Shown here: positions 60,730 to 61,429 of the stretch, one piece after another | How the letters are laid out: every line of letters begins with the position of its first letter | Numbering within the stretch: the first letter of the stretch is position 1 | DNA from: a virus | Taxonomy: Duplodnaviria > Caudoviricetes | Virus record (IMG/VR): IMGVR_UViG_2843675664_000001 | Coordinates: 5,636-69,635 of that record | DNA: 64,000 nt | Reading direction: 5' to 3' (one strand) | Translations under genes and position numbers: made by a program | Notes under the pieces: generated by a model | Told to the model about the DNA's origin: nothing | What the model saw: the letters and a program-made list of their open reading frames with translations, nothing else | Databases searched by the model: none

Positions 60730-61429
60730 GATAAAAGTCCTTTTACTGGTACGTGCTGTATATTATACCAGTGTATAACAGTGTTATACAGTTCAAATAA
60801 CAAACAAATATCAATCTAACCCACTGTTAAAAAAGCAAAGCTCAGATTTGCGCTTTGTACCGTTGTGGTTGTCGCAATAGCCGGAAAGGGTGACGGTTGG
60901 AATGCGGGCCCGGTACAGAAAAGCACAGATTTGTTGTTTTAGTTTCGGGATTGAGAGCAAAGGATTACCCGCCAGAGAAAAGCCCTCAGACGTTTACAAA
61001 TGTTAACTTTTAAACCGGATGCCGGAGAGTGCTGATGTTGACAAATGTTGACATCTGAACCTGTCAAAACCTGACATCAAGAAACTCGGATGTTGTGAAA
61101 TATCGTGGTGAAAAGCTGTCACCGGAACCGGACAAAACCAGGCATCGAACAGCCGCCGAATGTGGATCAGCCAGGCGTGATTACAGGCTTTATCATCATT
61201 GGTACGCAGATTGGTACGCACCGGAATAGCCTGTATGATCCCGCGTACCGGACAATTACCGGACAGACCACCAGCTTATGCCACTCTATCAGCAGCCGGT
61301 ATCAGGACAATGACCGGACAGGAGGCTCCGGTATCGGTGGCTCACGCCAGAATGCTAAATCACACTCTGGATAAATATCAGTACGTTAAGTTATATCACC
61401 CTGCGCGGGACAAAGTGACGGTCTCGGGG

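Follow-up and report, generated by a model that had tools for sequence, protein, structure and literature searches.

The 64,000-nucleotide stretch analysed here (the window; positions 5,636 to 69,635 of the Caudoviricetes virus record IMGVR_UViG_2843675664_000001) holds a lambdoid-type prophage, which ends near 44.1 kb, and an integrative island of 19 kb (44.10-63.27 kb). Comparing the two elements, we found that non-coding DNA of the island, at 61201-61249, repeats a site that lies inside terS, the gene for the small terminase (TerS) of the prophage. This stretch is probably a copy of a site that the prophage's TerS family seems to read, and it would make the island packageable. With somewhat less assurance, we lean towards a wider reading, that a family of transfer RNA (tRNA)-integrated islands across Enterobacterales keeps a turnover-prone library of minimal packaging sites excerpted from terS genes, enabling packaging by whichever phage of the packaging-site (pac) type grows in the cell. 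The library comprises at least two TerS families and many alleles in a single orientation. It would mark the cis-acting 20-45 bp in each terS and, combined with the co-variation of terS site and TerS helix described below, would give a TerS-DNA specificity code that predicts helper-satellite pairs.

A site within terS recurs in the island

The unit GGTACGCA occurs five times in the window, always on the + strand: three times in the terS open reading frame (ORF), at 16951, 16966 and 16978, as a preliminary description of this DNA had stated, and twice in the island, at 61201 and 61213. Its expected count is 1.58, and one of 100 shuffled sequences reached five. The island 21-mer GGTACGCAGattGGTACGCAC (61201-61221) is identical to terS 16966-16986 at 18 of 21 positions, on the same strand and with the same 12-bp spacing, just as had been claimed. 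All three mismatches to the terS 21-mer, GGTACGCAGGCAGGTACGCAC, fall in the spacer, which reads gca in terS and att in the island. With up to three mismatches allowed, GGTACGCAGGCAGGTACGCAC matched only itself and 61201-61221 in the window; over 100 shuffles, the mean number of matches was 0.00 and none had two. The match within the window is beyond chance.

The architecture common to terS and the island is longer than 21 bp, because both also carry an inverted core of the unit. In terS, three direct units spaced 15 and 12 bp apart are followed, 21 nt past the last one, by GCGTAC; in the island, two direct units are followed by GCGTACC, 22 nt past the second, and the whole module sits 2 kb from the right end of the island (Table 1). 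Within terS the repeat is in frame, reading M-VR-KQE-VR-RQ-VR-TE, and a protein-level repeat therefore had to be excluded.

The terS site varies in concert with the TerS helix

Relatives of the prophage terS numbered 108 in IMG/VR, from which 80 loci were kept. All 80 have three units at the same position with the same 15- and 12-bp spacing, and the unit differs by lineage, being of the GGTACGCA type in 20, of the GGTTGCCA type in 56 and GGTATCCA in four. Between lineages, the residue that the unit encodes switches among R, A and S in all copies at once. A fourth element, the inverted unit core, lies exactly 21 nt 3' of the last unit and is lineage-matched in 81 of 83 sites (84 loci); it reads GCGTAC, GGCAAC or GGATAC by lineage, and the encoded Val becomes Gln or Ile. 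A coding repeat maintained at the protein level was rejected, since the residue turns to A or S in all copies and the inverted copy, in another reading context, co-varies with them. Because four elements in two orientations and in different codon contexts change together, the terS repeat behaves as a DNA-level site, and its concerted change points to selection on DNA, not on protein. The unit type does not track overall TerS identity, as a TerS that is 86% identical to that of the prophage has GGTATCCA and the 75%-identical TerS of the Escherichia coli phage HK639 has GGTACGCA; in HK639, terS carries three GGTACGCA units together with GCGTAC.

A further unit, GGTTTCCA, was first seen in islands only. 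Searched as a triple with 15- and 12-bp spacing, it matched 103 IMG/VR stretches, 97 of which lie in homologues of the prophage TerS at the homologous position (44-69% identity among the matches listed); the remaining six include at least one island. The island arrays therefore foretold a fourth allele, or lineage, of terS.

Variation in the unit is accompanied by variation in TerS itself. Among 112 distinct TerS proteins, the two columns with the strongest tie to unit type, residues 33 and 58, both fall just beyond the codons of the site, residue 58 abutting the first unit; residue 36 comes next in association, behind the site's own codons 61, 66 and 70. Residues 33 and 36 are G and R with GGTACGCA (15/15), G and N with GGTATCCA (4/4), and Q and S with GGTTGCCA (13/13), and TerS proteins with GGTTTCCA have T at residue 33 in 79 of 80 and N at residue 36 in 75 of 80. 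Residue 33 tracks base 4 of the unit (A vs T), and residue 36 tracks bases 5-6 (CG, TC, GC). An AlphaFold2 model of TerS, built from 25 sequences with a mean predicted local distance difference test score of 71 (84-89 for 10-residue blocks over residues 11-40), shows helices 7-16, 21-27 and 32-41 as a three-helix bundle. In this model, both residues 33 and 36 lie in the third helix of a predicted helix-turn-helix, and the third helix is the usual recognition helix of such a fold. With the TerS profile, a sequence search of the PDB gave nothing above noise, the best match being an ATP synthase stalk at E 0.024. On the residue associations, TerS is the likely reader of the terS site.

The mechanism that we propose would begin with the growth in the cell of a phage whose TerS has the matching recognition helix, of the Gly33/Arg36 type found in the adjacent prophage. 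The matching TerS would bind the island module on replicated island DNA and recruit the large terminase (TerL), and phage capsids would be filled with island concatemers by headful packaging that starts at the module.

Copies of the site in related islands

Related islands were collected through a 141-aa marker protein (encoded at 60304-60729), which gave 61 IMG/VR loci and 40 loci in named genomes, 101 in all. The named genomes span some 20 Enterobacterales genera, including Morganella, Providencia, Proteus, Photorhabdus, Xenorhabdus, Klebsiella, Serratia, Pantoea and Erwinia. Dimers of the form GGTNNNCA-N4-same unit occur 62 times, in 45 of the 101 loci, in the orientation seen in the window, and twice in the opposite orientation, against a chance expectation of 0.019 per strand. 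The commonest units are the three terS alleles, GGTATCCA (22), GGTTGCCA (18) and GGTACGCA (13), followed by GGTTTCCA and GGTTCGCA, and many of the copies are triples with the 15- and 12-bp spacing. With units taken as looser 7-mers, 35 of 57 GTACGCA modules had the inverted core 17-26 nt downstream, the distance being 21 or 22 nt in 33, and so did 11 of 22 GTATCCA modules and three of six GTTTCCA modules.

Across 44 distinct contexts of GTACGCA dimers, conservation extends over the units, the brief A-rich run (GCaaAA-like) that comes next and the inverted core (at ~22 nt), and the spacers vary; the earlier suggestion that only the spacer differs, as would be expected of a protein-binding site, agrees with this pattern. 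Consistent with this, the close relatives L143, L145 and L148 keep the module at the same place with the spacers acc, acc and agc, compared to att in the window. Islands whose marker proteins are 88-95% identical keep the position of the GGTACGCA module, and their sets of other modules differ. Judged by their sequences, the islands carry non-coding copies of four allelic forms of the terS site, in one orientation. The preliminary description had taken the module for a mimic of a pac site, and the concerted change of terS units, the helix residues and the single orientation of the island copies all argue for that reading.

Other modules and their origin

Two non-coding stretches of the island, 58446-58704 and 61035-61599, together contain at least 15 dimer modules. 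Four further units were traced through IMG/VR: ACGGCAAG and ACGGTGAG of the seven-module 11-bp array, ACCTGACA of the 10-bp-spaced modules at 61035-61076 and ATCCTAAC of array 1. The pattern ACGGCAAG-NNN-ACGGCAAG matched at least 116 stretches, at least 67 of these dimers with the island's own spacer ATT; among the matches listed, 66 are open frames and 42 read NGKITAR, a peptide of Terminase_2 terS. Seventeen stretches, eight of them open frames, matched ACGGTGAG-NNN-ACGGTGAG, and two lie in Terminase_2 terS genes and read NGE(I/V)TVR. The pattern ACCTGACA-NN-ACCTGACA matched at least 117 stretches; among the matches listed, 89 are open frames and 85 read NLTKPDI, and two ORFs with this dimer (L465 and L442) are Terminase_2. 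For ATCCTAAC-NN-ATCCTAAC, 71 stretches with 40 open frames were found, and 17 read ILTNPNV as in Terminase_2 terS, which Pfam confirmed for three. Over all traced units, the nine ORFs tested against Pfam are Terminase_2 small terminases without exception.

All traced modules stand in the island in the coding sense of terS and come from at least two TerS families. With this mixed ancestry and at least 15 modules, the island looks like a generalist for many pac-type phages. The Terminase_2-derived modules have no partner in the window, because no Terminase_2 gene (PF03592) was found in the record, island included.

Most other open ATCCTAAC frames belong to proteins of giant-virus metagenome bins (L553, L558, L562-L564, L566-L568, L570-L573 and others), in which ATCCTAAC-AA-ATCCTAAC reads ...RKHKILTNPN...; they are probably an unrelated protein family with the same peptide. 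The TACCGGACA pair is built as [unit]-ATT-[unit], like the 11-bp modules that derive from terS, and, on the other strand, resembles the iterons TGTCCGG (5395, 5406) of the prophage's O-like initiator gene; it may be a copied origin site or another terS-type module. Within the initiator gene (5395-5470), TGTCCGR iterons stand in 11-bp phase as two groups of three, with AT-rich DNA after them, and CCGGACA, the iteron 7-mer on the other strand, occurs four times in the island (61128, 61246-61265, 61314), two of the copies 11 bp apart. Origin mimicry, in which the 10- and 11-bp modules ending in GACA would be iterons for several O alleles, was dropped because ACCTGACA dimers sit in Terminase_2 terS. 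Non-coding unit-ATT-unit arrays (GTGGTAAG, ACCCTAAG, ACCGCAAG and others) also flank ACGGCAAG dimers in IMG/VR contigs that were not gathered through the 141-aa marker (L300, L307, L312, L352, L357, L365 and others), and other element families may keep such site libraries too.

Traces of terS coding sequence are present in the islands. Some modules retain a terS-like spacer, aaacgtgag (K-R-E codons), and one related island (L620, record G021, 61242-61436) has a 74-aa ORF that corresponds to the first 65 positions of a Terminase_2 TerS. This fragment and the terS of the prophage adjoining that related island share 82.7% identity over 196 nt, and a stretch of the fragment, ACCTGTCAAAACCTGACATC, is common to the window at 61059-61078. 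Given both the codon spacers and the fragment, "capture" describes the origin of the modules better than convergent "mimicry": islands would take up 5' pieces of terS genes, and the pieces would then erode to the repeat core. The 74-aa ORF comprises only the N-terminal DNA-binding part of Terminase_2 TerS; it may still be made and bind DNA, or it may be a fresh capture on its way to erosion.

Alternative explanations

Could the arrays act against phages rather than exploit them? As a decoy or sponge, they would bind the TerS of incoming or induced phages and divert or block packaging, in defence of both host and island. Titration would agree with the side-by-side presence of many modules for many TerS types, interference of satellites with helper packaging is known (PMC11417361, partial text), and no capsid-size or redirecting gene was recognised among the island ORFs with Pfam and PHROGs. 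However, each module is present once per island, and without replication of the island a lone site would take up little protein. The strict orientation (62 vs 2) also suits directional packaging better than titration, and we regard a decoy as unlikely, with the proviso that binding would start packaging anyway, so that decoy and packaging are not mutually exclusive. It is very unlikely that the modules are neutral scars, functionless fragments left when islands repeatedly recombined with phage terS regions, illegitimately or through short homology. The terS codon spacers and the 74-aa fragment do show that terS pieces enter islands, but the repeat cores alone survive with unrelated flanks, units are conserved while spacers drift, the orientation bias is the same 62 to 2, and the core architecture, including the inverted element, recurs across genera.

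The modules could also be sites for the island's own proteins (for example, the ribbon-helix-helix protein encoded at 58127-58336 or the 141-aa protein encoded at 60304-60729) or iterons of a second origin or a partition site, their likeness to terS being secondary. Small genes for putative DNA-binding proteins lie beside both arrays (RHH_1, E 1.3e-5), the 11-bp modules repeat with a period of 23 bp in the manner of plasmid iterons, and the TACCGGACA pair resembles the O-gene iterons of the prophage on the other strand. One protein, however, cannot read at least 15 different units, and the units are identical, letter for letter and spacer ATT included, to terS-internal repeats of named TerS families. 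Moreover, module content varies between islands with 95% identical marker proteins, and the island origin sits elsewhere (53877-54168), leaving this explanation highly improbable. A chance likeness of two short tandem repeats can be dismissed: 8-mers do recur in 64 kb, as the expectation of 1.58 indicates, but no shuffle yielded a second 21-mer match, and the comparative results also speak against it.

Several observations weigh against the island module being a packaging site read by the prophage's TerS family. The island copy has two direct units and terS has three; the inverted core follows none of the 18 GTTGCCA island modules; and in the GGTTTCCA terS lineage the exact 6-base core is never found at 21 nt, where a shifted partial inverted match occurs. 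The association of TerS residues with unit bases suggests recognition and is not proof of it, as it covers only four alleles in related sequences. A literature search found no mapped packaging start for any phage of the TerS family, phrog_1206, and papers on Mecenats66 and Serratia phages name IME1369 or HK639 but give no packaging data for a phrog_1206 TerS; we therefore infer the pac status of the terS repeat, which may serve another role, such as autoregulation. Some phages that package from cohesive ends (cos) pair an HNH endonuclease with terminase, and cos-type cutting by the prophage may be considered, given an HNH gene 850 bp upstream of terS. The public sequencing runs consulted consist of contigs without read ends and are informative for the tRNA and attachment (att) boundaries.

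Co-residence of islands and phages is a further point on this side. A full-length TerS of the prophage's family is present in two of ten island-bearing genomes and lacking in eight, and it is present in one of 14 other provirus records with an island beside a prophage and lacking in 13, comparisons that are low in power because a TerS of the required family is rare among genomes and records with an island. One Pluralibacter genome shows a mismatch, with GGTTGCCA in the island and GGTACGCA in terS (a truncated locus), and in record G018 the unit of the prophage's Terminase_2 terS, ATAGTAAG, is absent from the island locus. Since most island genomes and records carry no such TerS, islands evidently persist without a matching phage.

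The adjacent prophage as a candidate helper

The island's only module of the GGTACGCA class is the allele of the adjacent prophage's TerS, which makes this prophage compatible with a role as helper. The preliminary description had named it as one helper on the strength of the match; the allele fits that proposal, whereas the helper role itself does not follow from adjacency, since prophage and island use one tRNA-Arg gene and sit there in tandem. Elsewhere, three IMG/VR isolate genomes (L029/L083, L052/L089, L063/L094) pair terS of the GGTTGCCA lineage, its units assigned from a 78-79% identity group and not per locus, with three GGTTGCCA units in the island, and in one Xenorhabdus genome terS has GGTACGCA and the island a GTACGCA module. 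A headful of about 47.7 kb, the length of Morganella phage IME1369_01, would if started at 16.97 kb and run rightwards pass 63.27 kb and cover the whole island. Speculatively, in-place packaging of the prophage before excision would carry the whole island along.

Organization of the window

The nearest relative of the prophage is Morganella phage IME1369_01. Its TerS matches the phrog_1206 profile over residues 2-196 (E 2.3e-86), which is a full-length match, and has no match in Pfam; named relatives within phrog_1206 are those of HK639, SEN34, GF-2 and Klebsiella prophages, with 74-79% identity. The portal gene (PF06381) and then a Mu-F-like head gene (PF04233) lie 3' of the TerL gene, a gene order that we take to be typical of headful phages and that would point to headful packaging of the prophage. 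This gene layout and the position of the terS site together suggest headful packaging. The HNH gene upstream may encode a homing endonuclease or a terminase-associated HNH protein.

The island extends over about 44104-63271, or 19.2 kb, because att cores (TCGAATCCTGTAGGG) stand at both ends. Its left end is the right end of the prophage and falls in the 3' half of a tRNA-Arg(UCU)-like gene, its identity assigned by visual inspection of the anticodon loop; contigs from three other public runs have the tRNA's 5' half immediately before 44081. No contig of the public runs links 63.27 kb back to 44.10 kb. Beyond the right end are a 37-aa N-terminal remnant of another P4-type integrase (63462-63575) and an ArsR-type regulator (63665-64000), and the tRNA-Arg integration site looks like a repeatedly used hot spot.

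Phage-inducible chromosomal islands (PICIs) of Gram-negative bacteria run from int through alpA to primase/replicase, measure roughly 10-20 kb, are flanked by att sites and lack virion genes; for comparison, the island has an integrase, an int-alpA RNA leader, a primase, a length of 19.2 kb and att cores. The ORF at 45697-46371 has no Pfam match, and the AlpA protein itself was not recognised in the island. The island also codes for Rha and Ash regulators, with isrK and C4 RNAs, and for several unknown proteins. The isrK and C4 antisense RNA motifs (P1/P7-type immunity; C4 RNA RF01695, 83.4 bits) lie at 48310-48802 within a long "Ash" ORF (47819-49048), and three 33-36-bp direct repeats (48310-48426) precede them. 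An 800-aa ORF (55277-57679) matches the tail tape-measure family phrog_2276 from end to end (E 8e-163), with weaker matches of residues ~563-711 to PHROG endolysin and tail injection transglycosylase families; it is an odd gene for an element otherwise lacking virion genes.

No homologue of the prophage TerS, TerL, portal or capsid candidate was found in the island (best E 0.013). None of the island ORFs tested matched sid, delta or psu in Pfam or PHROGs, and a search of the record for the Psu family found nothing, although the control of that search matched nowhere either. Of P4 traits, the island shows the integrase type, an alpha-type primase and a C4/CI-type immunity RNA, and it is not classed as P4-like. 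Nothing resembling 60800-61700 was found in the E. coli genomes searched.

Table 1. Features of the prophage and the island, with positions in the window
Feature	Position	Strand	Remarks
S24-type repressor, O-like initiator with in-gene iterons, DnaB helicase	upstream of prophage terS		
HNH endonuclease gene	15331-15924		850 bp upstream of terS, no long ORF in between
terS, prophage small terminase, 200 aa	16775..17377	+	phrog_1206 "terminase small subunit"
Three direct GGTACGCA units	16951, 16966, 16978 (16951..16985)	+	spacing 15 and 12 bp; putative TerS recognition (pac) site
Inverted unit core GCGTAC	17007..17012	+	21 nt past last direct unit in terS
TerL, prophage large terminase	17379..18860	+	phrog_2 and others; 97% identical to Morganella phage IME1369_01
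tRNA-Arg(UCU)-like gene, 3' half	44080..44126	+	prophage right end and island left end
Island left att core TCGAATCCTGTAGGG	44104-44118	+	15-bp direct repeat
Island integrase, P4-type tyrosine recombinase	44257..45501	+	PF13356, PF22022, PF00589
int-alpA RNA motif	45626-45694		RF02996; 3' of island integrase
Island primase-helicase, Zn-ribbon/Toprim/DUF927	51056-53803	+	PF08273, PF13362, PF06048
Island iteron origin, TGAACCAAC repeats	53877-54168	+	inverted and direct repeats I1-I3, I23; dimers
Ribbon-helix-helix protein gene of island	58127-58336		RHH_1, E 1.3e-5
Array 1, 10-bp spacing	58446..58704	+	AAATCCTAAC x2 (58446), TACTAAGT x2 (58484), GCTAAC x2 (58585), TGATAAGGT x2 (58609), ATGTATCGG x2 (58686)
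Island 141-aa protein, marker for collecting related islands	60304..60729	-	no Pfam or PHROG match
10-bp-spaced modules	61035..61076	+	ATGTTGACA x2 (61035); ACCTGTCA/ACCTGACA (61059, 61069)
Two GGTACGCA units (61201, 61213) and inverted core GCGTACC (61243-61249)	61201..61249	+	non-coding, island
TACCGGACA x2, 11-bp spacing	61246..61265	+	
Seven modules, 11-bp spacing, form unit-(A/G)TT-unit-G	61431..61599	+	direct repeats D2, D5; units ACAACAAGG, ACGGTGAG, AGGGCGAG, ACGGTAAG, ACGGCAAG, ACCACAAGG/ACTACAAAG, ACGCTAAGG/ACACTAAGG
Island right att core TCGAATCCTGTAGGG	63257..63271	+	15-bp direct repeat; contigs of other runs diverge at 63271-63274

Relation to known systems and implications

In the headful phages P22, Sf6 and SPP1, pac sites lie within the 5' half of terS and consist of short repeats read by the N-terminal helix-turn-helix of TerS. 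Unlike these, the phrog_1206 terS site has three direct units and one inverted unit, which co-vary with residues 33 and 36. Among satellites, SaPIbov5 reportedly has two routes to packaging, cos plus its own TerS and pac. Satellites that carry the packaging signal of their helper are known, the PICI-like element (PLE) of Vibrio cholerae being one, and P4, SaPIbov5 and EfCIV583 are named passive mimics (PMC11417361; cited, like PMC10803314 and PMC11389934 below, from partial text). The island shares two features with such satellites: it is att-flanked with its own integrase and replication genes, and no terminase or capsid genes were found in it; and it has a non-coding stretch equal to the terS site, to which we ascribe a role in recognition by comparison of sequences.

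PLE copies 14 bp within 89 bp of the pac of phage ICP1, a stretch needed for transduction (PMC11417361). Like PLE, the island is an integrated satellite without a terminase of its own that carries a short copy of a phage packaging site, here a candidate site (PMC11417361). PLE has one site for one phage, works with three packaging proteins (Gpi, GpsA and GpsB) and copies a pac that is intergenic in ICP1 (PMC11417361), whereas the island has at least 15 modules from within terS, drawn from several families and alleles of TerS, with no packaging protein recognised in it. P4 mimics the cos of P2, SaPIbov5 a phage cos and EfCIV583 a phage pac (PMC11417361). In these three, satellite DNA is taken for phage DNA by the TerS and TerL of the helper, and the same is predicted for the island; the available text describes each with the signal of one helper type and none with an array of allelic sites (PMC11417361).

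In Vibrionaceae, PICMI, a phage-inducible chromosomal minimalist island, is packaged as a concatemer into full-size heads in a headful-like manner and has no capsid-remodelling gene, according to the available part of the report, whose authors were unable to locate either a cos or a pac site in the genome of the helper phage (PMC10803314). The island likewise has an integrase, a putative AlpA-type control and a primase, and no capsid-remodelling gene was recognised in it; PICMI is about 6 kb long and sits beside fis, while the island is 19 kb long, sits at tRNA-Arg and has candidate sites that are visible (PMC10803314). By analogy, a 19-kb island would also be expected to enter a capsid of about 48 kb as a concatemer.

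Packaging-signal mimicry by satellites is already known and, in the sources consulted, described as one signal per helper type; the array of several allelic sites would be the new feature here. Our literature search, with many subscription papers and supplements outside its scope, turned up no account of a single element with several pac sites in an array. A 2024 review points out that shared cos or pac motifs would identify helper-hitcher pairs and that such motifs are mostly small, degenerate or unknown (PMC11389934, partial text). If the library reading is true, the arrays would be a strategy for transfer by many unrelated phages, which bears on the spread of genomic islands between genera. 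The island arrays would also be a natural "footprint" of the functional pac core in several TerS families, and the co-variation of unit, inverted unit and recognition helix would provide a testable recognition code for the small terminase.

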